From: an uncultured cyanobacterium
GTDB taxonomy: Bacteria > Cyanobacteriota > Cyanobacteriia > PCC-9006 > JAAUQQ01
DNA: 64,000 bases
Assembly (NCBI GenBank): GCA_963718615.1
Contig: OY970368.1
Span: forward strand, 3,520,001 to 3,584,000
Direction of reading: 5' to 3'
The notes under the pieces are model-generated. The model did no database searches and was not told the origin of the DNA. It saw only the letters and a program-made list of their open reading frames with translations. A program made the position numbers and the translations under genes. This document shows, one piece after another, positions 16,289-30,400 of this stretch. Every line of letters starts with the position of its first letter. The stretch's first letter is position 1.

Positions 16289-18259
16289 TTGAATCCGCCT
16301 GTGACTTCTTTTGTGCCGTCCGGTAGCCTGCTCTTCCTGGCCATCGTTGCGAGCCTGCTGCTGTCGATCGCCTTTCAGCTTCTTCTTGCAAATTTGGGGC
16401 TAGCCGTAGGGTTAACCCTGGCGAAGCCAGCCCTTGATTTGGCCTCTGCCCAGCCGGAATCCCCGTCTAGCACATCTCAGTCCCGTGGCTCTCGTGCTCC
16501 AGAGTCTCAGTCTCCAGATAACGGTTTAGCCGGTCTAGGGGCATGGGCGGGACTCGGCCTTTGTTTGGGTCTGGATATGGTTTTGTTTGCCTCTTGTTTC
16601 CTGACCGTGCGGTTGAGCTTTTTGCAGGCACCCGTGTTGGGTGCAACGCTGGGTCTGATTACCTGGGCAGCCCATCTGCTGCTGTTATTTTGGGTGAGTA
16701 CTACAGCGGTCGGGTCTACACTGGAGGTGTTGCTAGGGGGGACGACAGCAGGGATTCGTAAGCTACTCCGTTGGGTTCGGCAAACCCCGAAGGATCTGGA
16801 TGACAAGAGCGATACTGAAAAGAGCGATACTGAAAAGAGCGATGGCGATCGCCTCAATCAAATCCAAAACCAGCTCAACAGGGCACTCCATCAGTTGGAG
16901 GAGATGCAAGCTCAAATGCGGGATTCGCTCCACCCCATTGCATCGCCACAAATTTCATCGCCACAAATTTCATCACCGCAAATTTCACCAGACCTGTCGA
17001 CCAGCGCATCGCAACCAGATCCTGCATCCGATGCACTCTTGCCCCAACTACGAGAAAAGTTGACGACTGTTTTAGACAACCTGGATTTTGATCTCAAGGC
17101 GAAGCTGCAAGAAGCCCTCGCTGAAATCGATCCCTCCGACTGGGATTTAGCAACGCTGTGGCAGCAGATGCGCTCCCCAGGCAAACTAGAGGATTCAGAA
17201 CCAGAGAGCCCAGAACCAGAGAGCCCAAAACCAGATTCGCCTCGCCTGTCTGACGCGGCCATTGCCGATGTTAATACCCAGCTCCAAAGTTACTTTCGAT
17301 ATACCAACCGTAAAAAGTTAACCCCCGAGGGCGTGACCCAAAAGCTAGAAGTGGTCTTGACGCCTTGGATTGCCACGGATAACTTCCCGGATAACTTCAC
17401 GGATAACTTAGCGATCGCCCGCAGCGCCATAAGCGCCATCGATCAAGCAGCACTCAAAACAATTTTGACCCATCGTAATAGCCTGTCGCCCCGCCGAGTC
17501 CAGAAACTCCTCGCTCCATTGCAACAGGAACAACCTCTCAAGGCGAATCAAACGGCCCCTGTCCCGGAGCCAGGGACGGCAATCGAGTCCAAAGCGCTCA
17601 AAGAACCCAAAGCGCTCACAGCGTTCAAAGCCAACACGCTGCATCCAGTTGTAGAAACTCTGCAATCGCTGTTTCAAGACTTAGATTTGGGCGTAGAGGT
17701 CAGTCAACTGTCCTGGGCTGAGGTGCAAAGTGTGCTGTGGGAATTTTCTTCTGAAAGTTTCGAGGCTGAAAATCTAGATCTAGAAATTTTGCAAGAACGC
17801 TGGGGGCGATCGCTCCACCATTGGACCCAAACAGCACAGGGTGCGGTTCAAACCTTAGAAGATCAGCTTAAAGCCACAGCTCAAGAATCGACTGCACTTT
17901 TAAGTCATTTGCCAGAACATCCGCTTCATCAACTGCAAAACCAGGTCCAAAGCTTACTCGGAGGCACCCTGGCAGAGCTACAAAATCTTCCCCATTTGCC
18001 CCAAGCGGCTGCCGAACAATTGCAAACGATGCTGACTCAAACCCAGTCCCAAATCGTCAGGCAGATTGAGCAAGCCCAGGCCGGTCTGGAAACTCAAGCG
18101 CAGCAGTTACAAACCCAGGCGATCGCCCAAGCTGAAGCTGTTCGACATTTGGCGGCGATCGCGGCCTGGTGGCTGTTTGCCCTGGTCTTTTCTTCGGGCT
18201 GCACGGCAGCTCTAGCCGGTTACTGGGCAGCTTTACAAAATGCCTCTTGCCTCGTCTGA
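16289..18259 (+). CDS. Hypothetical membrane protein (N-terminal TM bundle, helical middle, C-terminal TM)
   Basis: Three hydrophobic segments, Gln-rich coiled-coil, AAWWLF C-terminal anchor; several 12-15 bp in-frame duplications. Confidence 0.6.
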   Translation: MNPPVTSFVPSGSLLFLAIVASLLLSIAFQLLLANLGLAVGLTLAKPALDLASAQPESPSSTSQSRGSRAPESQSPDNGLAGLGAWAGLGLCLGLDMVLFASCFLTVRLSFLQAPVLGATLGLITWAAHLLLLFWVSTTAVGSTLEVLLGGTTAGIRKLLRWVRQTPKDLDDKSDTEKSDTEKSDGDRLNQIQNQLNRALHQLEEMQAQMRDSLHPIASPQISSPQISSPQISPDLSTSASQPDPASDALLPQLREKLTTVLDNLDFDLKAKLQEALAEIDPSDWDLATLWQQMRSPGKLEDSEPESPEPESPKPDSPRLSDAAIADVNTQLQSYFRYTNRKKLTPEGVTQKLEVVLTPWIATDNFPDNFTDNLAIARSAISAIDQAALKTILTHRNSLSPRRVQKLLAPLQQEQPLKANQTAPVPEPGTAIESKALKEPKALTAFKANTLHPVVETLQSLFQDLDLGVEVSQLSWAEVQSVLWEFSSESFEAENLDLEILQERWGRSLHHWTQTAQGAVQTLEDQLKATAQESTALLSHLPEHPLHQLQNQVQSLLGGTLAELQNLPHLPQAAAEQLQTMLTQTQSQIVRQIEQAQAGLETQAQQLQTQAIAQAEAVRHLAAIAAWWLFALVFSSGCTAALAGYWAALQNASCLV

Positions 18260-18527
18260 TCCAAGTTTATAAGTTGGTAGTGCTTTTGTGTCAAAATAGA
18301 TTGATCTTCCCCTCAAGAAGTAGACAGAGAAGTTAAGCTGCGACGGATTGATTGAGAGAGAGCCAGTATTGCGCCTCAAATTGAACAGGGGGAGAGAAAA
18401 CCAATGGGTGAGGCTTGACGCTGACCTAAGGCTGCCTCTAATGCCGTCAACAGGGTTAAACGGAAATCCGTGCAAAGATTTCTGAAGAAAAAGCATTCTA
18501 GGTCTTCCTATCCAGGGAATTACGGAT

Positions 18528-18639
18528 ATTATGCAGAATAGTGTTCCGTCTCATCTCCCTCATTCGGGATTATGCGGAATTGGGTTTCTGCATAATCTTC
18601 TGTGTTGGGTATTATGCAGAATCCGATTCCATCTAATGG
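18528..18639. repeat. Three phased ~29-bp imperfect palindromes with ATTATGC[A/G]GAA arms
   Basis: ATTATGCAGAA at 18528, ATTATGCGGAA at 18569, inverted TTCTGCATAAT at 18586, ATTATGCAGAA at 18611. Confidence 0.8.
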
Positions 18640-18730
18640 CTGTTTTGGATAAATAGGCCGGACAGATCCTATATAATGCCCCATCTCAAGGAATTAGACA
18701 GAATTAATTCAGTTTAATTAACCATTGTAT

Positions 18731-19110
18731 GCGCGATTCGAAGTCGTTCGGGGGAGCTGGAAAGAACTCCAAAATTCTTTCCCAGCTAGTGTTCAATCGG
18801 ATGTCCACCTCGGAATGTTCAACTAGTAATGAGAGGGAAGAATCAGCAGATTATCCGCTTGCGACAAGGACAATGTCAGCTATGTGGGAGTCTCTTTTCA
18901 ACAGAGAACTGCTGCATGTTCATCACAATCTGCCGCGTCGTCTAGGAGGGACTAAGCATGCTTCCAATTTTATGGCACTCCATCGAGTTTGCCATCAACA
19001 ATTGCATCGTTGAGCCATAAATTTTGCTTGATTTGTGTACAGTACAAGTTGTACGCGCGGTTCTAAGGAGAGAGGGGAGGCTATATATGAAACCTATCCC
19101 TTTATCCAAC
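18731..19110 (+). mobile_element. Degenerate, internally deleted group II intron (HNH fragment plus domain V/VI relic)
   Basis: GCGCGATTCG at 18731 resembles a GTGCG 5' end. Frameshifted IEP C-terminus RQGQCQLCG / ESLFNRELLHVHH.LP..LGG....NFMALH..CHQQLH. Then TGTGTACAGTACAAGTTGTACGCGCGGTTCTAAGGAGAG (domain V-like) and ...CCCTTTATCCAAC (domain VI end-like). Confidence 0.7.
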
Positions 19111-19221
19111 GACTATTGGTATTTACTTCTAACAACCTGCGAAGAATTTTTTTCTTGAAGGATTAGGTTGAATACCATTGCTCTTAGATACAAAATCTAA
19201 ACGAATCTGAAGGAGTCTAAA

Positions 19222-20580
19222 ATGCCAGTTGTAAAAGTGCCTGAAGCTTCACTCTCCTATTATCTGATCGCTTTCGACAAAGACGGAAAAGAGCGATCTG
19301 AGTCGGATGGCTTCCTGTGCCAACAGATATTGGATGTTTTGGTGAGTGAGCCCATCACGGATGTGTTTTTGATTAGTCATGGTTGGCTAGGAGATGTGCC
19401 TGCAGCGAAGAGACAATATAACGAATGGATCAGAGCAATGGTAGACAGTGAAGATGCTCAAAAAGTAAAAGCATCACATCCTGACTTTAAGCCCTTGATG
19501 ATCGGTCTTCACTGGCCTAGTAAACCCTATGGAAATGAAGACTTAAATGCATCTTTTTCGTTTGATTTGGCAGAACCACAAGCCAATGACATGATCGAAA
19601 ACTATGCAACTGAAGTCTCAGACACACAGGCTACTCGGGATGCATTTAAAGAGATTATTGCCGCAGAAAACAAGCTGCGACATGCTTACCAAACAATCCT
19701 TCGTGAAGCTTACGCGAGTGATGGTGCTAACCATTCAGAAGAGTGGGAACAGGCCGAGCCTTTGCTAAAAAACGCACAACTATCAAAAACTCGAGACAAC
19801 GCCAGCAAAAGCAACGTAAGTTTGGGGGATGATGTAGCTTTTGGTCTGGAAGACAACTTCATGGATGCCATCTCAGACTTCGATTTCAAAGATGCTCTTC
19901 TAAAACTACCGCGAATGGCTTCTTACTGGAAGATGAAAAACTTGGCCCGTACCATAGGCCAAAGCGGTGGGTTTGACTTGTTGCAAAAGCTTCAGCAAAA
20001 AGCGAACGAGAAGGTACGTTTTCATCTTATAGGACACAGTTTTGGCACCATTGTTGTGTCCTCGATGCTTAGAGGCCCCGAAAAAGACAGTCAGCTTGTA
20101 CGCCCGGTCAACTCGCTTAGTCTGATACAGGGAGCCGTATCCCTGTGGTCGTATTGTCCTCAAATTCCTAAAAGGGATAATCTTGAGGGCTATTTTTACT
20201 CTATCATTCGCGATAAGAAAGTTGCAGGCCCTATTATCACAACACTCTCAAAATATGATAAAGCGGTAAGACTCATGTATCCTCTCGCTAGTCATGCTGG
20301 CTTACTAGGCGGAGCAGACATTGACTTTGACGTGAACTTTGGTGATTCAGCCTATCCTATCGTAGGTGGAATCGGAACTTATGGTATTCAAGGCAACGGT
20401 CTACTAGACGTTGAAGATATCCTAATGAAGTCCCAAGACAAAGCCTATCGATTCAAGCCCGGTTTTATTTACAACTTGAATAGTGACAACTTTATTCAGG
20501 ATGGAACAAAAGATGCTCACTGTGCTATCGCTAAGCCCGAAGTCGCACATGCTGTCTGGTCCGCTGCATTTAGCGTTTAG
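19222..20580 (+). CDS. Alpha/beta-hydrolase fold protein
   Basis: SHGW oxyanion motif, IGHSFG nucleophile elbow, SKYD and DAHCAI candidate Asp/His; SD GGAG upstream; no signal peptide. Confidence 0.8.
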   Translation: MPVVKVPEASLSYYLIAFDKDGKERSESDGFLCQQILDVLVSEPITDVFLISHGWLGDVPAAKRQYNEWIRAMVDSEDAQKVKASHPDFKPLMIGLHWPSKPYGNEDLNASFSFDLAEPQANDMIENYATEVSDTQATRDAFKEIIAAENKLRHAYQTILREAYASDGANHSEEWEQAEPLLKNAQLSKTRDNASKSNVSLGDDVAFGLEDNFMDAISDFDFKDALLKLPRMASYWKMKNLARTIGQSGGFDLLQKLQQKANEKVRFHLIGHSFGTIVVSSMLRGPEKDSQLVRPVNSLSLIQGAVSLWSYCPQIPKRDNLEGYFYSIIRDKKVAGPIITTLSKYDKAVRLMYPLASHAGLLGGADIDFDVNFGDSAYPIVGGIGTYGIQGNGLLDVEDILMKSQDKAYRFKPGFIYNLNSDNFIQDGTKDAHCAIAKPEVAHAVWSAAFSV

Positions 20581-20664
20581 CTTCATCTTGCCAGCAAGTA
20601 TCTAGGCAAAAAGTATCGAGTCGAAAAATATCCATTTGATGTCCATCTTTCTCCAGAACTAGCT

Positions 20665-22368
20665 ATGGTTGAAGAGAAAATTTATTTCAACGGAATCAAT
20701 GGCAGCACAGGCGAATACCTATTTCCCCCGCTGACTGCCGAGCAGCTTGCGCAAGTTGCGAGAGGTGAAGAATTTGAATCTTCAGAAATCACAGAGTTAA
20801 AACAAAAGAACCGGCGGGTCAAAGGTCTTGAGGTTGATTTCGCCCCTAAAGAAGGAATAGATCCTAAAGACCTTGCCCAAACAGGGTGGGGCGTCATTTT
20901 CTCTTATGATTCAGATCCGGCCATTAAACAAGCGCTTCAAGTGCTTTTGGATCATCGTAAGAGACAGGCTACTCAGAGACATGATCACTACTATCAAGAA
21001 TATGTCGGGGTTAAAGGATATCGACCTGGCGAATCAAAAAATCAGTTTTTAGCTCGGCACAAGGTTGGCCCTGGGCCGGCTGACCCAGATAAAATGCCCT
21101 ATTATTTGCTGATTGTAGGTGATCCAGACACGATTCCCTTTCGCTTTCAGCATCAGCTAGATGTGCAATATGCAGTAGGGCGTATCCATTTTGATACCCC
21201 AGCTGAATATGCTCAGTATGCCCGCAGTGTTGTCAAAGTAGAAACGGAAAATGTTGTTTTGGCTCGTCGAGCGCATTTCTTTGGGGTGCAAACAGAAGAT
21301 GATCCAGCAACTCAGCTCAGCGCTCAAAAACTAGTACAGCCACTTGCACAGTGGATGATTGAGGATCAAGGTGGAAGCAATTGGAGCGTAGAAACTACAC
21401 TAGGTAAAGCGGCGACAAAGGAGACCTTAGAAACGCTATTGGGCGGATCACAGACGCCAGCACTGCTGTTTACAGCGAGTCATGGCATGGGGTTTAGTAA
21501 CGGAGATCGCCGACAGATCTCCAAGCAGGGGGCTATTCTTTGTCAGGATTGGCCAGGGCCTAAGGCGTGGGAGACTAGACCTATCCCCGAAGATTATTAC
21601 TTTTCTTGCAATGATATTAGTGATAATGCCCGTCTTTTGGGGCTCATCTCTTTTCACTTTGCTTGCTATAGTGCCGGAACGCCTCAGTTCGATGAATTTT
21701 CCCATAGAGAAGCGTCAGAACAACGGCCAGAAATCGCACCACACGCCTTTATTTCAGCTTTGTCAAAGCGGTTGTTGAGTCATCCTCAAGGTGGTGCCCT
21801 CGCGGTGATTGGTCACATTGAACGAGCTTGGGGATGTTCGTTTGTGTGGGAAGATACTGGCGCTCAGTTAGCTGTTTTTGAGAGTACCTTAAAGCGGTTA
21901 CTCGAAGGTCACACCGTAGGCTCAGCGGTTGAGTATTTCAACGAGCGCTATGCAGAATTATCTTCTGATTTGAGTAGTGAGTTAGAAGAAATTAGATATG
22001 GTAAGACGTTTGAAGCCTCAGCCTTATCGAGTATGTGGACCGCTAACAATGATGCTCGGGGCTATGCGATTATCGGCGATCCGGCTGTAAAGCTTCCTAT
22101 GGGTGGCTCTACAGAGGATAGTTCTGTAGGCGAACGCTCTGTACGTCCAATAATAGGACCTTCACCGCAAGATTTCTCGGGTGCGATCATAACACCGACT
22201 CAACCCAGTGAATCGCTTTCCTCCGTCGAACAAGCACGAAACGATCTGAACCAAACCCTCGATCCCGTGATTAGCGCAATTCAACAAGGTCCTGTAGAGC
22301 GCAGCGTGCTACAGCAAGCACTATCAGCGACTATCAAACTTCTAGAAGCTCTAAATGAACAGCTCTAA
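20665..22368 (+). CDS. Peptidase C25 (gingipain-like, caspase/hemoglobinase fold) cysteine protease
   Basis: YYLLIVGDP..IPF and AVGRIHF (C25 N-subdomain), FTASHGMG (His), HFACYSAG (Cys), GGALAVIG, terminal IIGDPA; no signal peptide. Confidence 0.75.
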   Translation: MVEEKIYFNGINGSTGEYLFPPLTAEQLAQVARGEEFESSEITELKQKNRRVKGLEVDFAPKEGIDPKDLAQTGWGVIFSYDSDPAIKQALQVLLDHRKRQATQRHDHYYQEYVGVKGYRPGESKNQFLARHKVGPGPADPDKMPYYLLIVGDPDTIPFRFQHQLDVQYAVGRIHFDTPAEYAQYARSVVKVETENVVLARRAHFFGVQTEDDPATQLSAQKLVQPLAQWMIEDQGGSNWSVETTLGKAATKETLETLLGGSQTPALLFTASHGMGFSNGDRRQISKQGAILCQDWPGPKAWETRPIPEDYYFSCNDISDNARLLGLISFHFACYSAGTPQFDEFSHREASEQRPEIAPHAFISALSKRLLSHPQGGALAVIGHIERAWGCSFVWEDTGAQLAVFESTLKRLLEGHTVGSAVEYFNERYAELSSDLSSELEEIRYGKTFEASALSSMWTANNDARGYAIIGDPAVKLPMGGSTEDSSVGERSVRPIIGPSPQDFSGAIITPTQPSESLSSVEQARNDLNQTLDPVISAIQQGPVERSVLQQALSATIKLLEALNEQL

Positions 22369-22395
22369 AAATATGATTTGATATACCGTTAACAG

Positions 22396-22431
22396 AGAAA
22401 GTTCAGGGCACTTTGTGGTTCTGAGCTTTCT
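22396..22431 (+). terminator. Stem-loop between the C25 and CHAT genes
   Basis: AGAAAGTTCAG...CTGAGCTTTCT inverted repeat (one G-U pair). Confidence 0.45.
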
Positions 22432-22486
22432 TGTATAAAAATCTGTATGAAATCTCAAAATCAATTCGTAAGGGAGCCGCGTTTAG

Positions 22487-25400
22487 ATGTCCGTATTTGA
22501 GATTACCATTCAGCGTAAAGTAGCAGACTACTATCCTATTGTCGCAAAATACAGTAGTCGTCCAGATGAGCCTGTCGAATTTTTACCTGTCTGGTCAGAA
22601 GGGAAGCTGCGACTTTCTCAAACAGACCATGACCATCTCTTCAGCCTGATAGGCCAACCCAGAGAGTATGGAACTTATTTAGGGCAATTACTCTTTAAAG
22701 ATAGTATTGGCAATGCTTTCGCAAGCGCCAGAGCAAGAAGTCCAGAGTGTTTGCGCCTGTTGCTGTTTCTTGAAACTAAAGAATCTGAGCTACAGACGCT
22801 GCGATGGGAGCGTCTATGTGCTCGTGGAGATGGCAATGAATGGAATTTCCTAAGGTGCGATCAGCGAGTTCCCTATTCGATTTATGTACCTTCTCTGGCA
22901 GCTCGTCGGTTTCCGCCTATTGGCCGATATGGTTTAAGGGCGCTAGTGTTAGTGGCCTCGCCCGAAAATTCAGAAGCATATGGACTCGCTGCTTTCGACG
23001 TTGAGGAGACGGTTGCAAGTGTTTGCGCCTCTTTGGGAAGTGTTCACTGTGATGTATTAGCTGATGTTGATGGTGCACTCGGACTGCCCACCATAGGCAA
23101 CCTCATGACCCATCTTACGAAAGAAACCTATACGTTTCTCCATATTGTTTGTCACGGGCGACAACGAGAGGATGTCAGTCTTTTTTTATCAGATGAACAT
23201 AACCAGGTTACGTATGTCAAGGGCAAAGAGTTAATTGAAAAGCTGAAAGATATAGAAGGTCTGCCTCACTTGACGTTCCTTTGCACCTGTGAAAGCGCCA
23301 AAGTTGATGATGATGGTGCCTTTGGTGGGTTCGCAGGGCAGTTAGTCAGAGATTTGGGAATGCCTGCAGTGGTGGCGATGACGGAGAAAATAACTGTCCG
23401 TACAGCCAAGAGGTTAGTCCAGGCGTTCTATCAACGGTTGATAGAAAATGGCGAAGTTGATTTAGCCTTAGATCAAGCAACCGCTTCAGTCAGTAGCCGA
23501 GATGATGTGTTGGTACCTGCTTTGTTCAGCCGTCTGGGCGGACGGCCCTTGTTTAGCGATACCCTTAATCGCTTACTGACACCGCGAGAAATTGATAACG
23601 GGTTAAAACGCTTGAAACGTCTACTAGAAGAGCGAGCACCTGTGCTAATTGAAGAGTTTGATATGCAGCAAAAGGCGCTAAGAGCAGAAGATAATGGGGT
23701 AATAGAGATATCCTCGCTGAATGAGTCTGCTCGCAATAAAGCACAGGCCGCTCTAGACGAACTGAATAAAATCTGTGGTGAAGTAGTGGGTATCAGCTTT
23801 AATGCTGTTGCCCTAAACAAAAAAGTATCGCAATACGATCCGCGCTGTCCGTTTCCTGGTTTAAGCCCTTTCACACTGCAAGATAAAGAATTCTTCTGCG
23901 GGCGTGAAGCGCTGGTCGATAGCTTAAAAACAAAACTGGAGAAGTCTCCCTTTTTAGTATTAGTAGGCCCCTCTGGAAGCGGTAAGTCATCGCTGGTATT
24001 GGCAGGCCTGGTTCCAGCCTTACAGAAAGCTCAACCTAACTTAAAATTGATTTATATAGTCTTGCGTAGCAATCCACTCCAGCAGCTAGAAGATTGTCTT
24101 TCAGAGGTGAAAGACCTCCCTTTTATATTAGTCCTAGAGGCGTTCGAGTTGCTATCTACGCTTTCTCTAGCTCCCGAAAAACAGAAAGAGTTTATCGAAA
24201 GACTGCTAGAGGTTGTTGATTCGCATCAGTCACAGCCTAAAGTTGTATTTACGGTGAGAAGAGAATTTTTGACTGACAGTATTCACCACAACACTCTATC
24301 AAACAGACAGATATCCGTTGAGAAAATTGAGCCAATGACTGCGGCAGAGCTGCGACTGGCTATGGAACAACAGGCTGCAAAGGTTGGCCTTAAATTTGAG
24401 GTTGGCCTGAGCAATACTATTTTAGATGATATAGAGGAAGAGCCTGGCTCAATGCCGCTTTTGCAACATGCGTTGAATCTGTTGTGGCAGAAGCGTCATG
24501 GGCAGTGGCTCATCAACAGCGAATATCAAAAATTTGGAGGTGTTAAAAAAGCGATCGCGAGCACTGCTGATAATTTCTATGAAAAGCTCTCTGAAGGAGA
24601 GCAAGCGCGAATGAAAAATATTTTTATTCGCCTGACGCGCCTAGATCCCGATGCTACAACGGGAAAAGATAGTCAAGATACCCGGCATCGGCGAGTTGCT
24701 TTGTCGGAATTAGTGCTGGCCGAAGGTGACCCGGAAAAGAGCCTGGTTCAAACCCAAGCACTTGTGAATAACTTAGCCGGAGACGCGGTGCGGTTAGTTC
24801 GTATAGAGATGTCGCAAGAGGGTAGTAATCATAAAATCGGCAGTGATGTGCAAGAAGTCGTAATGGCTCACAAAGCTTTGATCCACGACTGGTCCAAGCT
24901 AAGCCAATGGCTAGAAGAAAACCGAAGTTACTATCAACGTAGAGAAAAACTTAGCGAAGACGTCAGGCATTGGAGAAAGAATAAATGTCGAGCAGAAGAT
25001 CTGATTTCTCAACAAAAAACACTGGATGCAGCCAAGGAGCTAGGACGCCTTGGCTTTTTAAACGATGCAGAAGCAGAATGTGTAGAGAAATCACAACAAG
25101 CGCAGTTAAGAAAGTCTAGAGCGTATACGATCGGGGTGACAGGCGTTGCTGTGCTGCTGGCGGGTGTTTCTGTTTTTGCTTGCCGACAGCAAAAAGTCGC
25201 TGTTGAACAGAAAGGAATTGCTGAGATAGGCAAACAGATCGCTCAGCTAAAGGAACAGTCGGCGAGAGCTTCTAGCTGGATTTCTGAGGGTAAGTCTGCA
25301 CCGGGTCTAATGTTGTCTTTGGGGACACTCAGTCAAAGTGTTGAGAATGATCAGTATCCACCTGAGGTTGAGCTAAATGCCCAAGAGTCAGTGATAGATG

Positions 25401-27460
25401 CTGTACAACGTGCCCGTGAGAAGAATGTTTTGGAAGGGCACGAAAACAGCGTAAAGGCGATTGCCTACGATTCTAAAAATGACTACATTGTTACTGGAGG
25501 TGAGGACAATAGCTTAAAAGTTTGGGATGCTAAAACAGGAAAACTGTTAACAGCCAGAGTAAAGGCACACGATGATGCAATCTACACCGTTGTGTTTAGT
25601 CAGGATGGAAAACATCTCGTGAGCGCTGGAAAAGACAAAACATTGAACGTTTGGACGATTGAGCCGAGCGATGGCGATAGCCTAGCTAATAGGCAGACTC
25701 TTGACTCGATTAAGCTCTCGTTGAGAAACCGTATTCAGGGAGGCCATACTCAGCCAATACGTGCGGTTGCATTTAGTCCTGAGGGCGATCGTTTTGTCAG
25801 TGCCAGTGATGATCAAACATTACAACTCTGGAACGTTAAGTCAGGTAAGCCGATTGGTGAACGAATGAGAGGGCATACAAGTATTGTTTGGGCCGTAGCC
25901 ATTAGCCCTGATGGTACGCAGATTGCCAGTGGAAGTGTTGATAGAGCGATTAAAGTCTGGGATGGAAAGACCGGAGAGCTAACGTTTACAATCCCATTTG
26001 CGCATGAAGATAGCATATTTTCTATTGCTTTTAGCCCGGACAGCAAACGCATTGTCAGCGGCAGTGGGGACAGAAGTATTCGGGTGTGGGATGCCCGAAC
26101 CGGAGCTCCCATTGGATTTCCGCTACTCGGCCACGATGGTAAAATATATTCTGTGGCATTTATGCCCAATAATCAGACTATTGTAAGTACGGGCAGCGAT
26201 CGCACCATTCGTTTTTGGCATCCTGAAACTGCAACAGAAACGGGCAAAATTGTAGAAGCCCATAGTAGCTTAATCTGGGGACTTGCTTTAATGAATAACG
26301 GCAAGGAAATGGCGAGCGTCGGATCTGATAAAAAAATTCGGCTGTGGGATATCAACAACGATTTACCACTAGGTCAACCCCAGCGAACGCCTCACACGAA
26401 AGATATTTTGTCGATTGCGATCAGTCGTGATGGTGATCGAATCGTTAGCGTGGGTGAAGATACCAAGCTAATGATGTGGGATGTCTACACTCAAAAGCTT
26501 CTCTGGAAAATGCAAAACGTTCATGATGCGCCCATTCAATCAGTTGCTTTTAGCCCAACAGAAGCAAAGTTTGTCACTGCTAGCAGCGACGGCACCCTAA
26601 AGTTGTGGGATGCAACCGCTCAAAAAAACAGCATTTGGAGAACAAAGTCTAATCCAAGTCTTACCCGTAACCAGCGAGATATTTATACTGTAGCGTTTGC
26701 GCCAGATGGTAAAACCGTTGTCAGCGGCGGCAGAGATGGAAAACTAAGAATATGGGACGTAAGTACTGGCGATCAGAAAGTTGAATGGATTGCAGCCAAT
26801 GCAAAAAGCCCTATTCTTTCTGTTGCAGTGAGTCCCGATGGAAAATATATTGCGAGTGCTGGTGCTGATCACATTATTACGCTGCTGGATATGCATACAG
26901 GAGAGGTGATACAGCGTTTTCGCGGACATACTCAAGATATTTGGGCGATCGCATTCAGCCCGGATGGAAAATTGTTGGTTAGCGGCGGCAAGGACGACAC
27001 GCTGCGACTTTGGCAGATAGAAAAAGGCCAACAGATAGGGAAAGAACTCAAGGGTCACACGAATGATATTTCGACTGTCGCATTTAGCCCAACGGGTAAA
27101 CAAATTGCTAGCGGAAGCTTTGATAAAACCATACGCCTATGGGATATCCAAAACATTGAACAGGTAAAACCTTATGGACCACCCCTTATAGGCCATTTAG
27201 AAAGTATATGGTCTGTTCAGTTTATGCCAGATGGAAAGTCTATTGTCAGCGCCAGCGCAGATCTCACCTTGCGTAGATGGCCGAGTCACTGGTCTCAGTG
27301 GTCCAAAATGGCTTGCGAACGTTTAGAGAATCATCAGCTAATGAGTGACTCTCAGGAAAGTGCAAATATCGACAAAGATTTAGCAGAAATCTCTGGGGCG
27401 GCCAAAGAAGCCTGCGATCGCAAGTTTTGGCAGATAAAAGAGCGTGTCTCTATGCCGTAA
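22487..27460 (+). CDS. CHAT protease - nSTAND1 NTPase - hydrophobic segment - 14x WD40 protein
   Basis: LHIVCHG and FLCTCES (CHAT dyad); CPFPGL.PF...FCGRE, GPSGSGKSS (Walker A), PGSMPLLQHAL; hydrophobic helix AYTIGVTGVAVLLAGVSVF; 14 WD40 repeats counted. Confidence 0.9.
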   Translation: MSVFEITIQRKVADYYPIVAKYSSRPDEPVEFLPVWSEGKLRLSQTDHDHLFSLIGQPREYGTYLGQLLFKDSIGNAFASARARSPECLRLLLFLETKESELQTLRWERLCARGDGNEWNFLRCDQRVPYSIYVPSLAARRFPPIGRYGLRALVLVASPENSEAYGLAAFDVEETVASVCASLGSVHCDVLADVDGALGLPTIGNLMTHLTKETYTFLHIVCHGRQREDVSLFLSDEHNQVTYVKGKELIEKLKDIEGLPHLTFLCTCESAKVDDDGAFGGFAGQLVRDLGMPAVVAMTEKITVRTAKRLVQAFYQRLIENGEVDLALDQATASVSSRDDVLVPALFSRLGGRPLFSDTLNRLLTPREIDNGLKRLKRLLEERAPVLIEEFDMQQKALRAEDNGVIEISSLNESARNKAQAALDELNKICGEVVGISFNAVALNKKVSQYDPRCPFPGLSPFTLQDKEFFCGREALVDSLKTKLEKSPFLVLVGPSGSGKSSLVLAGLVPALQKAQPNLKLIYIVLRSNPLQQLEDCLSEVKDLPFILVLEAFELLSTLSLAPEKQKEFIERLLEVVDSHQSQPKVVFTVRREFLTDSIHHNTLSNRQISVEKIEPMTAAELRLAMEQQAAKVGLKFEVGLSNTILDDIEEEPGSMPLLQHALNLLWQKRHGQWLINSEYQKFGGVKKAIASTADNFYEKLSEGEQARMKNIFIRLTRLDPDATTGKDSQDTRHRRVALSELVLAEGDPEKSLVQTQALVNNLAGDAVRLVRIEMSQEGSNHKIGSDVQEVVMAHKALIHDWSKLSQWLEENRSYYQRREKLSEDVRHWRKNKCRAEDLISQQKTLDAAKELGRLGFLNDAEAECVEKSQQAQLRKSRAYTIGVTGVAVLLAGVSVFACRQQKVAVEQKGIAEIGKQIAQLKEQSARASSWISEGKSAPGLMLSLGTLSQSVENDQYPPEVELNAQESVIDAVQRAREKNVLEGHENSVKAIAYDSKNDYIVTGGEDNSLKVWDAKTGKLLTARVKAHDDAIYTVVFSQDGKHLVSAGKDKTLNVWTIEPSDGDSLANRQTLDSIKLSLRNRIQGGHTQPIRAVAFSPEGDRFVSASDDQTLQLWNVKSGKPIGERMRGHTSIVWAVAISPDGTQIASGSVDRAIKVWDGKTGELTFTIPFAHEDSIFSIAFSPDSKRIVSGSGDRSIRVWDARTGAPIGFPLLGHDGKIYSVAFMPNNQTIVSTGSDRTIRFWHPETATETGKIVEAHSSLIWGLALMNNGKEMASVGSDKKIRLWDINNDLPLGQPQRTPHTKDILSIAISRDGDRIVSVGEDTKLMMWDVYTQKLLWKMQNVHDAPIQSVAFSPTEAKFVTASSDGTLKLWDATAQKNSIWRTKSNPSLTRNQRDIYTVAFAPDGKTVVSGGRDGKLRIWDVSTGDQKVEWIAANAKSPILSVAVSPDGKYIASAGADHIITLLDMHTGEVIQRFRGHTQDIWAIAFSPDGKLLVSGGKDDTLRLWQIEKGQQIGKELKGHTNDISTVAFSPTGKQIASGSFDKTIRLWDIQNIEQVKPYGPPLIGHLESIWSVQFMPDGKSIVSASADLTLRRWPSHWSQWSKMACERLENHQLMSDSQESANIDKDLAEISGAAKEACDRKFWQIKERVSMP

Positions 27461-27475
27461 CAGACAGCCTCAACC

Positions 27476-30400
27476 CTATTCCCAGGCATCTAGAGCATTG
27501 ACCCAATAATTGAGTAAGGCAATAACCTGGGATCGCCTAGCTTCAAAAGTCGCAGCGATCCAAATTAATAGCAATCCTAAAACAATGCCAATGGCCCACA
27601 AAAATAGCGAATAATCCTGAACAAATCGCCAAACCTGAATCAAAACCCTAAGCATAAACGTGAAAGTACCGATGTACAAAAAGGCGCGAATGCGAAGGGC
27701 AAGCCCCGCAAAGATGAACAGGAGGCTAAAGGCGATCGCCCCTAACCCCGCCCCAAAGGGACTCAAGTTTCCTAGGCCAATTTCTGCCTGATACATAGCC
27801 GTAAAGCAAACAATACTGGTTCCCAAAACCCGGAGCCAGTGACGCTGCTGGCGATCGGATTGCGCCTGGAGTTGAGGTTCAACCTGAGCAAAGTAGAGCA
27901 AACTACCGCCGCCTAGGAGTGCGTAAACCAAGGGTTCTGTGATGCTAAATTGATGCAAAATTCGCAGCATGGCCCAGTCGAGCAACACAATGCTGAGGTA
28001 GCTCAGCCGGACCTGACGGCGGTGCGTTGCCAAGCCTGCGTAGAAAGCGGCGACAATGAGTAATGCCTGAATTCTAATATCCCAGCTTGTCAGTAAGACG
28101 GTGATCATCGGCAACAACATCGCCCAGCGTCGCCAGGGGCGCAGATTCCAACCGAGGCGTTGCCACGGCAACCCGTAAAGCAACGCCGCGATCGGGCAGG
28201 CGATCGCCCCGGCCCATGCCAATAGGACCGGCCAAGGACACCCTAAATGGATCCCGTAGCCTAAGGCGGATAGCAGTTGTATAATCCCCAGATCCGTCCA
28301 GCCGGAGCCCGCCTGCCTGGCCTGCCCTAGGGCATGGAGTCCAAGCAGCACCAATCCTCCCATCCAAAGCAGGCCCCCCGTTCCACTCAAGGGCAACAGC
28401 AGGGCCAGCAGGGCCAAGCCGCTGCCGATCCCCCAGTGAATCTGGGCAAAGACCCGCAGTTCTCCTGTTTCCCAGCGCAGGTAGGGACGAAGCCAGCGGG
28501 AGCAGAGGCGATCGCCCCAGGCAATTCCCACCGCCAGTAGTGCTAACAACATGACCCCATCGCCCGCAGCACCTCCAGGAGATCGGGAGAGTTGGTAGAT
28601 CAAGAGTTCGTAGAACCCAATCGAGCTGAGAATGAGGCCAATGTAACTAAAGGGTTTGAGCGTCGGTCGCCGCCGACCGACGCCCACGCCAACAGCCGCA
28701 GCCGCTAGGGTCAACAAGCCTGTGGTAGCCGTGAAATGGTGATGACCGATGAGTCCTCCCAGAATGGCATAGAGGATCGGCACACTGTGCCCAGCGCCTA
28801 GAAACGCGGGCTGTGGACAATCGGGACGCGAATGGCGCTGGATTCGGGCCTGCCAAAAATCACCCAGCCAAAAATCACCTAAGCGTTGCAAGAGCACCGC
28901 AAAGCTGAGATAGGCGATCGCCAATCCAGTCGCCCCTTGTCCTGCAAGGTGTACAACGACGGCCATGAGTGAAGCTAAGGCGATCGCCCCTCCATGGGCA
29001 TTCCAATTATTCGGAGCTCGCCAACAACTTAAAGCTAAAGCCAGGGTAGGCAAAAACGCCACCCCAAAATAAAGCGTATCCTCCTCAAAAAAGCCAAAGA
29101 ATGAACTGTCAAAATAGGCAAACAGATTGAAGATGAGCAAACCCAATTGAAGCGGGATAAAGAGGGCGATCGCCCAACCATTAGCAGCCCGTCGATAGAG
29201 GCCAATCAGTTCAGATTGGCGAGTTTGCATTGCGGTCCAAAAGAACCACAGTCCAGCGGTTTCAATGGCCATCAACAAAAGCAGCGATTCCCCATTCCCA
29301 CCCAGCGCAAGGCTCCGCTCCACCCCATACCAACCGGTGGCTAATCCAAACCCGATGGCGATCGCCGCCACGGGAAGTTTGCGCAATTGTAAACTGTTGA
29401 TTCCGGTTAAAAGGGCTCCCAGCCCATAGCCCACAATGCGGTAGGGGGATAATCCTATGCTCATGACCTGGGCAAAAATCACGGCAAACACTGCAAGGGT
29501 TTGCGTCGTGCGAGGGCTCAAGCAACGAGGGGATCGAGCCATTAAAACCATAAAGGCGGGTGCAATCCACCAGGCCATTCCCAGGGCTGACCTCGGCGAA
29601 GCCAATGGTTCGACTAGCAACAAAACATAGCTCAAGCCTGCAAAGATAAAACCGAAGACCCAGGCACTGCGTCGCCAGAGAACAGGTCTTGCCGTTACCG
29701 TCTCGAACCGGTCCGCGAACAGCACCTCAAATATGGACTCCGGCAACACACTGAAGCTCCATTCTATCGCCATGGCACCGAGGGCAATGAATCCCCAAAT
29801 TAGGCGAGGGAGCCCTGACCAACCGATATGAATCCAGCTAAAAATAGCGCCCCAGACCAAGGCTTGAATGAGATAGACAACCCAATTCGGAACCGCTGGC
29901 CGCCGTCGAATTGAAACGCCTAACAGGATCGCAGAAAGCGTCAGATTGAGGGCGCGAATCAACGGATTAGCAACGCTAAAAAGGGTCAGCCCACAACCCA
30001 AGACAAAGGCAAGAAAATCAGCTTGGGTTGCCAGTTGAATCAAGTTTTGTCGCCGTAATCGTCGACTCCAAAGGGCAAACAGGATCAAATAGGGGAACAC
30101 CGTCACACCCACGATCGCAAACGGCATGCCTGCATCTCCCGCGATCGCCCCAATCTTCTCGACCCAGCCATCCCGCACCGTCAGTGGCACAAATCGTCGC
30201 GCCAACCAAATCCCTTGCAAGCCCACCAAAAAGATCAGCGTCAGATCCAGCGGTAGCCGCAACCGTTTTAGGCGATCGCCCAACAATCCCAACGCCAGCA
30301 CCGTCACGACCACCGGCTGCCCCGGCGGATCCACCCTCAGCGACACCGCCCAGCCCAAAACCATTAAGCCGTATCCTGCTGCCAACCACAAACCTTGGGT

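Follow-up and report, generated by a model that had tools for sequence, protein, structure and literature searches.

Three adjacent genes at positions 19222–27460 of a 64,000-nucleotide (nt) stretch of DNA from an uncultured cyanobacterium (contig OY970368.1, positions 3,520,001 to 3,584,000, forward strand; the whole stretch is referred to as the window) were analyzed computationally. They encode an α/β-hydrolase (P0001, HYD), a stand-alone gingipain-like cysteine peptidase (P0002, C25-like) and a receptor-protease (P0003) in which a CHAT caspase-fold protease, an nSTAND1 nucleoside triphosphatase (NTPase), a predicted transmembrane helix and WD40 repeats are joined. The favored reading, held with roughly even confidence, is that the trio is a horizontally acquired conflict system for regulated cell death or abortive defense, in which a membrane STAND receptor is combined with a protease/effector module. 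Four points were shown by computation: the identity of the parts, how well they are conserved, that HYD is coupled to proteases and that the cassette is mobile.

The three open reading frames (ORFs) lie at exactly the coordinates, and all on the + strand, given by an earlier prediction made from the same sequence (the original prediction). They are intact, contain no internal stops and are each single-copy in the source genome, with spacers of 84 nt between P0001 and P0002 and 118 nt between P0002 and P0003. The catalytic motifs named in that prediction (GHSFG in P0001, SHG and FACY in P0002, CHG, as VCHG, and CTCES in P0003) were all present in the translations, and Pfam agreed with its assignment of C25, CHAT, nSTAND1 and 14 WD40 domains. 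The island that it had described as AT-richer and poor in the highly iterated palindrome HIP1 (GCGATCGC) was also recovered: GC content at 19–28 kb was 0.43–0.47, compared to mostly 0.50–0.60 elsewhere in the window; 4 of the 114 HIP1 sites of the window fell within 19222–27460, and none within 18163–24550. The features are as follows, with lengths in amino acids (aa).

18163–27460, no strand: AT-richer, HIP1-poor island, from GC and HIP1 counts; left edge approximate
19222–20580, + strand: HYD (P0001), 452 aa, α/β-hydrolase by the fold of its model; family without annotation
20665–22368, + strand: C25-like cysteine peptidase (P0002), 567 aa, gingipain fold, clan CD (Pfam PF01364)
22487–27460, + strand: STAND receptor-protease (P0003), 1657 aa, CHAT, nSTAND1, transmembrane helix and 14 WD40 repeats in that order
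22667–23500, + strand: CHAT caspase-fold protease domain, P0003 residues 61–338 (Pfam PF12770, E 7.9e-19)
23849–24988, + strand: nSTAND1 NTPase, P0003 residues 455–834 (Pfam PF20703, E 5.5e-84)
25127–25183, + strand: predicted single transmembrane helix, P0003 residues 881–899, by hydropathy
25430–27301, + strand: WD40 region of 14 repeats, presumed sensor (Pfam WD40, E 8.3e-133)

Fold and catalytic residues of the hydrolase

P0001 was matched by no model of Pfam, NCBIfam or PADLOC v2. Its relatives were recovered in a word-indexed search (1,759 matches, every one labelled "hypothetical") and in a profile search (2,753 cluster representatives at E ≤ 0.001, 814 at E ≤ 1e-30). The AlphaFold model had a predicted local distance difference test score (pLDDT) of 72 and included a helical, partly disordered insert of ~150 residues (~105–260), with residues 166–226 scoring below 50 and disordered. 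Foldseek, queried with this model, returned no match at E ≤ 0.001. In VIA-align the best row was the type VI secretion system phospholipase Tle3 (8boz_A; Z 13.1, root-mean-square deviation (rmsd) 3.8, 228 residues aligned), with hornet phospholipase A1 (4qnn_A; Z 13.1, rmsd 3.5, 214 aligned) and the Nir2 DDHD domain (9jyx_A; Z 12.9, rmsd 5.0, 246 aligned) beside it and many esterases and thioesterases close behind (Z 11–12.7). The modeling firmly assigns HYD to the α/β-hydrolase fold, as expected from its description as a Ser hydrolase in the original prediction. Because the lipase rows were tied with many esterases and thioesterases (Z 11–13), a lipid substrate was taken as a lead only. No DUF900 (PF05990) match was obtained for P0001; a divergent relative reached E 0.00099 and 19.1 bits, below the cut-off of 20.5, and DUF900 was found on 14% of the members of one nearest ESM Atlas cluster.

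The candidate catalytic triad of HYD consists of Ser273 (in GHSFG), Asp346 and His433, with an oxyanion-type HGW at residues 53–55. In the model, the triad follows the canonical order: GHSFG lies between strand 266–272 and helix 275–284, Asp346 follows strand 338–342, and His433 precedes the last helix. Across 48 homologs, Ser was present in 48, Asp in 47 and His in 46, with all misses being gaps.

The C25-like peptidase and its predicted complex with the hydrolase

P0002 matched Pfam Peptidase_C25 (PF01364) over residues 148–477 (E 9e-8, 32.2 bits against a cut-off of 23) and matched no NCBIfam model. With its structural model (pLDDT 82.6), Foldseek retrieved gingipain K (6i9a_A, E 3e-7) and gingipain R (1cvr, E 2.1e-6), at template modeling (TM) scores of 0.39–0.53, followed by separase, SAVED-CHAT and Craspase, so that the gingipain fold of P0002, like the hydrolase fold of P0001, is predicted by modeling in agreement with what had been proposed. 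Catalytic His273 and Cys334 were each found in 78 of 78 homologs. The protein is stand-alone, has no hydrophobic N-terminal segment and is predicted to be cytoplasmic. From the N-terminus it comprises ~58 conserved residues, a flexible linker (57–59), the peptidase and a variable C-terminal helical tail; the N-terminal 58 residues are unrelated by sequence to the gingipain pro-domain and had no sequence match in the Protein Data Bank (PDB). Residues 1–478 retained 52–72% identity across Cyanobacteriota, Chloroflexota, Acidobacteriota, Planctomycetota and Pseudomonadota. More than 6,600 proteins of this family were among the matches listed in one search, and both HYD and the C25-like peptidase represent large families without annotation. 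PDB searches with single sequences and with profiles found no solved relative, by sequence, of either family.

A complex between C25 (residues 1–480) and HYD was predicted, with interaction prediction scores from aligned errors (ipSAE) of 0.76, 0.69 and 0.69 (median 0.69), compared to 0.08 for the best of three controls. Of 80 solved complexes, 58 attain the mark applied to ipSAE, as do 2 of 110 mismatched pairs; because our own alignments were used, these counts hold as a rough calibration only. At least 52% of the contacts were shared between runs, and the pLDDT of the partners was at least 70. In the model, the interface is formed by C25 residues 13–15, 277–283 and 303–310 and by HYD residues 342, 344, 380, 386–401, 418 and 420, and adjoins both active sites (C25 His273, HYD Asp346). 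Because no like complex has been solved by sequence, recall of a known structure by the predictor is unlikely. The prediction supports binding of C25 to HYD.

Gene fusions and pairs joining the hydrolase to proteases

Fusions were surveyed among the 150 best HYD profile matches, of which 148 were newly listed and 29 of these were at least 560 aa long. HYD and C25 were joined in one ORF in 11 of these 29 long metagenomic representatives, six in the order HYD-C25 and five in the order C25-HYD. Nine further fusions were analyzed with Pfam and contained, in addition to HYD, CHAT (two), a trypsin-like peptidase (one), Endonuclease_NS (two), trypsin followed by Endonuclease_NS (one), C25 followed by Endonuclease_NS (one) or nothing more (two).

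A separate two-gene module consists of an S8 peptidase gene followed ~10–30 nt on by a gene for a divergent HYD (23–28% identity). It was found on plasmids of Rhodococcus, Burkholderia and Rhizobium and in one cyanobacterial genome (L109:7195-10293, L110:7150-10320, L111:4234-7248, L105:9481-12420). Because relatives of HYD are paired with or fused to S8, trypsin and CHAT proteases and the NucA nuclease, HYD is marked as a protease-deployed effector.

In four metagenomic polyproteins (P0249, P0257, P0260 and P0332), HYD is joined to a nuclease of the NucA/EndoG type (Endonuclease_NS), and in P0249 and P0260 a trypsin-like or C25 peptidase stands in front of the nuclease-HYD portion. This arrangement suggests that the nuclease-HYD polyproteins may be multi-effector precursors that are cut apart.

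The receptor-protease

NCBIfam gave weak partial matches to P0003, all below cut-off. The CHAT dyad, His223 and Cys268, was found in 44 and 45 of 51 aligned homologs, respectively, the remainder being gaps. The Walker A motif is GPSGSGKS, with Lys500 present in 51 of 51 homologs. The Walker B motif reads EAFEL in P0003 and DQFEE in homologs, the residue in question being Asp in 50 of 51 and Glu in P0003 only, and the downstream RaDF consensus reads RREF.

These substitutions bear on the possibility that the cassette of the source genome is a decaying or silent passenger, with intact genes and a compromised NTPase switch. The change from DQFEE to EAFEL, the Asp-to-Glu replacement seen only here among 51 proteins, the RREF sequence and an HNH-fragment ORF at the edge of the island would fit such decay. 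However, the three ORFs are full-length and without stops, the catalytic residues of protease and hydrolase and the Walker A Lys are intact, and Asp to Glu is a conservative change; we regard a silent passenger as very unlikely.

Between the NTPase and the WD40 repeats lies a transmembrane-type helix (residues 881–899, Kyte-Doolittle mean 2.13), and an equivalent hydrophobic segment was found in 48 of 51 homologs. The number of Lys and Arg in the 15 residues flanking it averaged 5.8 before the helix vs. 2.4 after it, with the N-terminal side higher in 47 of 48. By this positive-inside bias around a conserved helix, CHAT and the NTPase are predicted to be cytoplasmic and the WD40 propellers to lie outside, in the periplasm or lumen, and the WD40 sensor is therefore probably extracytoplasmic. 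The statement that the three proteins lack signal peptides thus stands for the N-termini, since neither P0001 nor P0002 has a hydrophobic N-terminal segment, but not for P0003 as a whole, which has the internal helix. In the same way, the description of P0003 as an NLR (nucleotide-binding leucine-rich repeat)-like sensor fits its STAND-plus-repeat layout, but a cytosolic sensor is unlikely given the predicted position of the WD40 repeats. The 14 repeats suffice for two seven-bladed propellers. In most loci the WD40 region was the least conserved part, with 26–35% identity across loci vs. 43–53% for CHAT and 55–66% for C25.

Cassette conservation and distribution

To survey gene neighborhoods, 80 loci were chosen by similarity to P0002 alone (the best 80 of 179 confirmed stretches), and gene presence was scored by tblastn at E ≤ 1e-5. 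HYD lay beside C25 in 49 of the 80 loci and c4, a protein of ~270 aa belonging to no known family, took its place in 23; one or the other was present in 72, and the two occurred together in none. A CHAT-domain gene was present in 62 loci (the 18 without it include several short contigs) and nSTAND1 in 49. The trio proposed in the original prediction therefore belongs to a conserved cassette, but the conserved core is C25 with either HYD or c4 and not the exact trio. Adjacency, gene fusions and the predicted complex together support the proposal that the hydrolase is under protease control, and its catalytic residues are conserved.

By ORF clustering, c4 is encoded directly downstream of a longer form of C25 in 17 loci. 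This alternative cassette consists of the longer C25 (640–750 aa), then c4 and often c12 (~111 aa), as at L037:12004-12879, L053:11962-12771 and L050:8254-8589. Neither c4 nor c12 has relatives in Pfam, PADLOC or the ESM Atlas, where the best score of c4 (0.80) was at chance level; the C-terminal stretch of c4 is hydrophobic and contains PGG. That c4 might be a diverged HYD was considered and rejected (hhalign probability 23%).

A lipoxygenase (Pfam PF00305, E 1.3e-57) was encoded in 23 of the 80 loci, all of them HYD loci (23 of 49 HYD loci, 0 of 23 c4 loci). It occurs in at least three placements: upstream on the same strand, downstream of the receptor, and on the opposite strand. The protein (L004:16942-19119 and 22 further loci) is ~725 aa long and begins with a region of ~390 residues belonging to no known family.

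The alternation of HYD and c4 around a constant C25 allows a different assignment of roles, in which C25 is the executioner, licensed by CHAT and degrading many cellular proteins in the manner of PCaspase, and HYD is a regulator, inhibitor, chaperone or secondary co-effector. No other component is nearly as well conserved as C25, with its 52–72% identity across five phyla; the predicted contact surface reaches the loop that follows catalytic His273, as it would for an inhibitor; and PCaspase, in the part of the report available, is a protease of the second tier that has broad specificity and an inhibitor of its own (Steens et al., 2023). Against this, the Ser-Asp-His triad of HYD is fully conserved, which would be needless for a mere inhibitor, HYD also occurs with S8, trypsin and CHAT proteases and is fused beside the NucA nuclease in the pattern of an effector, and the lipoxygenase goes with HYD and not with c4. 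We consider C25 unlikely to be the executioner and retain HYD as the terminal effector.

Outside cyanobacteria, CHAT is often carried by a separate CHAT-SIR2 protein that precedes an nSTAND1-WD40 protein. The CHAT-SIR2 fusion (L064:2919-5003 and eight further loci, from Chloroflexota, Acidobacteriota and one gammaproteobacterial metagenome-assembled genome) is encoded just before the transmembrane nSTAND1-WD40 protein and C25, and its SIR2 part is ThsA-like (E 2e-9).

In a separate sample of 400 evenly drawn cyanobacterial genomes, HYD was found in eight and C25 in seven, with both in five and always adjacent. One divergent HYD lay directly after an S8 peptidase gene. Of the C25 genes, one was in a TPR-CHAT / C25 / c4 / CHAT-nSTAND1 layout and one was a fragment containing a stop. 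A C25 remnant of 38 residues with an in-frame TAA, apparently from a decayed copy, was noted in a cyanobacterium other than the source organism (L102, G130:C1:611250-611363). C25 was matched in 2 of 40 relatives. The cassette was also found on a conjugative Sinorhizobium plasmid, beside WYL, PD-(D/E)XK and UvrD genes, and on a Planktothrix agardhii plasmid (L113:11421-18262), in which an IS1634 transposase gene splits the receptor into CHAT and WD40 parts. The patchy distribution, the plasmid locations and the AT-rich, HIP1-poor island support horizontal acquisition and mobility of the cassette. Tandem duplicate receptors were common among the loci.

The same survey bears on whether the cassette might instead serve self-directed death or remodeling of filamentous bacteria (stress death, sacrificial cells or kin discrimination), with an envelope or extracellular cue received by the outward WD40 repeats. 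Such a role would fit the predicted extracytoplasmic position of the WD40 repeats, unlike that of cytosolic sensors of phage proteins, the hosts of the 80 loci, which are mostly filamentous cyanobacteria and Chloroflexota, and the lack of a PADLOC match; systems of this kind are associated with a multicellular habit in the available part of Kaur et al. (2020). However, the patchy distribution (2 of 40 relatives; HYD in 8 and C25 in 7 of 400 genomes), carriage on plasmids, tandem receptors with fast-diverging WD40 repeats and swapping of effectors are the usual marks of conflict systems. A self-directed pathway seems to us quite unlikely, although it and the conflict system that we favor are not mutually exclusive.

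Candidate processing motif

Short motifs resembling D-V-S-F-G-I recur in HYD, in c4 and in the region of the lipoxygenases that lies N-terminal to the catalytic part. Using the strict pattern [DENQSTGK][VI][SDT][FY][GSD], the frequency per 1000 aa was 2.61 in HYD and 2.62 in the lipoxygenases, vs. 0.26 in C25 and 0.22 across 594 further ORFs from these loci. The motif columns are conserved within variable, low-pLDDT loops, with the three HYD sites kept in 47, 41 and 38 of 48 sequences, and the motif was kept in 14 of 17 c4 proteins and 15–17 of 22 lipoxygenases. It was absent from the insert of all four S8-paired HYDs (0 of 4). A looser aromatic-small motif lay no more than 20 residues before the HYD domain in four of eight fusions with a C-terminal HYD. 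In the C25 model, the sole disordered spot of the N-terminal part (residues 57–59) holds a conserved aromatic-small pair: position 58 was F, L, Y, W or M in 77 of 78 homologs, and position 59 was A or G in 75 of 78.

Proposed mechanism

From these parts we infer the following course of events, including the ligand, oligomerization, cleavage partners, substrate and cell outcome. By sequence analysis, P0003 would be anchored by one transmembrane helix, with CHAT and nSTAND1 in the cytoplasm and two WD40 propellers outside. Binding of a ligand to the fast-evolving WD40 repeats would lead to NTP-dependent oligomerization and activation of CHAT by proximity. Fusions, adjacency and structure prediction suggest that the C25-like protease and HYD are held as a pre-assembled pair. 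CHAT and/or C25 would then cut at exposed aromatic-small sites, the candidates being F58-A59 in the C25 linker and HYD loops near residues 110, 205 and 366. Cleavage would free an active lipase-type HYD, which would attack membrane lipids so that the cell is killed or arrested. In roughly half of the related HYD cassettes, the linked lipoxygenase would oxidize the released fatty acids. HYD would be the terminal effector here, with c4, the NucA nuclease and SIR2 as alternative effectors in relatives.

In a fuller and doubtful form of this scheme, an apoptosome-like transmembrane receptor would sense an extracytoplasmic cue and start a cascade of CHAT and the gingipain-like protease, a latent lipase would be unmasked at the shared motif and destroy lipids, and about half of the related cassettes would feed a co-encoded lipoxygenase bearing the same motif, giving a ferroptosis-like death by lipid peroxidation.

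Several points weigh against the proposed mechanism. For the motif, P0001 itself has a strict match at 366 only (DIDFD), with degenerate forms at 110 (ASFSFD) and 205 (DVAFGL), and a looser version of so short a motif should turn up by chance several times in each protein. Because it is short, and because trypsin-HYD fusions without C25 also carry it, the motif serves as a hypothesis for mapping cleavage. The order of the proteolytic steps is not constrained: CHAT acting on a pre-formed C25-HYD complex would fit as well as the sequence from WD40 to CHAT, C25 and hydrolase put forward in the original prediction. The suggestion of a lipid substrate for HYD comes from the tied fold rows and the lipoxygenase linkage. 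This linkage was not seen in the source genome, in which no lipoxygenase matched; because the search control also matched no genome, absence is not proven. The topology of P0003 was judged by hydropathy and charge alone, and its Walker B is atypical, so that the switch may work differently or poorly here. Some of the fused metagenomic ORFs could be gene-calling artifacts. The 80 loci are phylogenetically non-independent, with many from Nostoc, and in two of the eight HYD-positive genomes of the 400-genome sample, both of one genus, HYD had no adjacent protease and a YbjN-like gene alongside.

If the model is true, a lipid-directed effector arm with an optional lipoxygenase would be added to bacterial caspase and NLR-like biology, together with a second case in which two caspase-fold proteases are paired in bacteria and a STAND receptor with an outward-facing sensor. 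The predicted C25-HYD interface, the candidate cleavage sites and the catalytic residues are concrete targets yielded by the analysis.

Comparison with known systems

As the original prediction had anticipated, the trio matched no named system in PADLOC v2, which has no model for HYD, C25, c4 or the linked lipoxygenase. In Avs and bacterial NLR-like proteins, the STAND NTPase is preceded by an effector at the N-terminus and followed by sensor repeats at the C-terminus, and P0003 has the same layout. Unlike Avs, P0003 had no Avs match in PADLOC v2 (its matches were limited to HEAT-ARM_XIII, driven by the WD40 repeats, and weak P-loop matches to mad3 and mad8), its sensor is predicted to be extracytoplasmic, and the trio has two extra enzyme genes as obligate partners. 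The Apaf-1 apoptosome works through initiator and executioner caspases. The receptor proposed here would resemble it in that a WD40-STAND protein oligomerizes and so activates a caspase-fold protease, which in turn acts on another, and differs in that the protease is fused to STAND, the receptor would span the membrane and the proposed end point is a hydrolase. Gingipains (MEROPS C25, Porphyromonas gingivalis) share the fold and the His/Cys dyad with P0002; unlike them, P0002 has no signal peptide and no secretion-type C-terminal domain, is STAND-linked and is only ~12% identical. Bacterial gasdermin systems consist of a gasdermin and a protease, whereas the effector here is an α/β-hydrolase, and no gasdermin model of PADLOC v2 matched HYD, C25 or c4. 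HYD alternates between S8 and C25/CHAT proteases, and a like alternation of proteases is described for the fungal gasdermin and protease system HET-Q1/HET-Q2 in the part of that report available (Clave et al., 2022).

The closest precedents in logic were found in the available part of Kaur et al. (2020, eLife e52696). In the VMAP ternary systems described there, a caspase-superfamily domain always occurs with a neighboring α/β-hydrolase gene and sometimes with a second caspase, and the peptidases of such NTP-dependent conflict systems probably release effectors. Like the trio, the systems of that paper (VMAP ternary, DO-GTPase and NucA-trypsin) combine an NTPase switch, repeat sensors, swappable effectors and predicted proteolytic release. 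VMAP systems also share with it a caspase-superfamily peptidase and a neighboring α/β-hydrolase, the hydrolases being likened by description, and the parts of the NucA-trypsin system (trypsin and NucA) are those found fused to relatives of HYD. Unlike VMAP ternary systems, the cassette, which has only three genes, lacks MoxR, vWA and VMAP genes, and such domains were absent from the nine flanking ORFs. In contrast to the systems of Kaur et al. (2020), the switch of the trio is an nSTAND1 (a name dating from Kaur et al., 2021, as far as its available text goes) that is joined to CHAT and also to a transmembrane helix and WD40 repeats, and the second peptidase is stand-alone and gingipain-like, the words "C25" and "gingipain" being absent from the available text of the 2020 paper. 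The trio also differs, judged by gene order, from the EACC1 two-gene system of the same paper, in which the caspase-bearing gene is immediately preceded by one for EACC1, a small protein with a single transmembrane segment: the gene 5′ of P0003 encodes the C25 peptidase, and the intergenic spacer holds no ORF.

In a type III-B CRISPR hybrid with a cyclic oligonucleotide-based antiphage signaling system (CBASS), SAVED-CHAT cleaves and activates a second protease, PCaspase, according to the part of the preprint available (Steens et al., 2023, bioRxiv). That system and the trio each have two clan-CD proteases per locus, one fused to a sensor through CHAT and one stand-alone. Its sensor-CHAT oligomerizes, cleaves the second protease and gives an abortive phenotype, a course that resembles the one proposed for the trio. 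Unlike the trio, it has a SAVED sensor that binds cyclic triadenylate (cA3), its PCaspase belongs to Caspase PF00656 (C14), and no hydrolase partner is described in the available text; neither SAVED nor PF00656 was among the Pfam matches of P0002 or P0003.

Searches of open-access text found no paper that treats the trio or that links a C25-like protease to STAND proteins or to defense against phages, although the architecture tables of Kaur et al. (2020, 2021) may list it. The trio had been called undescribed; this holds for its absence from PADLOC v2 and for its architecture, which is not described in the open-access text searched, but the logic of the cassette is already described, as far as the available parts of the sources go: the pairing of peptidase and hydrolase in Kaur et al. 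(2020) and the cascade from CHAT to a second caspase in Steens et al. (2023). The new elements are the gingipain-like partner, the predicted transmembrane topology of the receptor, the alternation of HYD and c4, the link to lipoxygenase and the candidate motif.

Surroundings of the cassette

The window is part of a single contig of 6.10 Mb and contains cyanobacterial-type genes near the cassette (Pam68, heme oxygenase, MTHFR). No tRNA gene was found at the island edges within 10–35 kb, and a scan of 17500–28000 with Rfam matched no family. Promoter and terminator scans gave counts that resemble those of shuffled sequences and, because of this, were uninformative on operon structure.

At the left edge of the island, the HNH endonuclease motif of a 94-aa ORF (18729–19013, + strand) is reduced to its C-terminal half (Pfam HNH, E 1e-6), and several copies of a word resembling TTATGC(A/G)GAAT lie just upstream at 18520–18630. 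Together, the HNH fragment and the repeated words are possibly the remnant of a mobile element; the Rfam scan gave no support to the idea that what is left of a group II intron lies next to the fragment.

The two large genes flanking the cassette were considered as further members and rejected, as neither is kept with it in other loci. P0242 (27476–31399, − strand), which converges on the end of the receptor gene, encodes a highly hydrophobic polytopic membrane protein of 1307 aa without a Pfam match, and its composition is host-like in GC (0.52–0.60) with a strong AT skew (0.25–0.32). P0243 (16289–18259, + strand) encodes a 656-aa low-complexity protein with hydrophobic ends and no Pfam match; its sole similarity among the loci was a weak match to one ORF in L024, and it contains short tandem peptide repeats (SPQIS three times, KSDTE twice).

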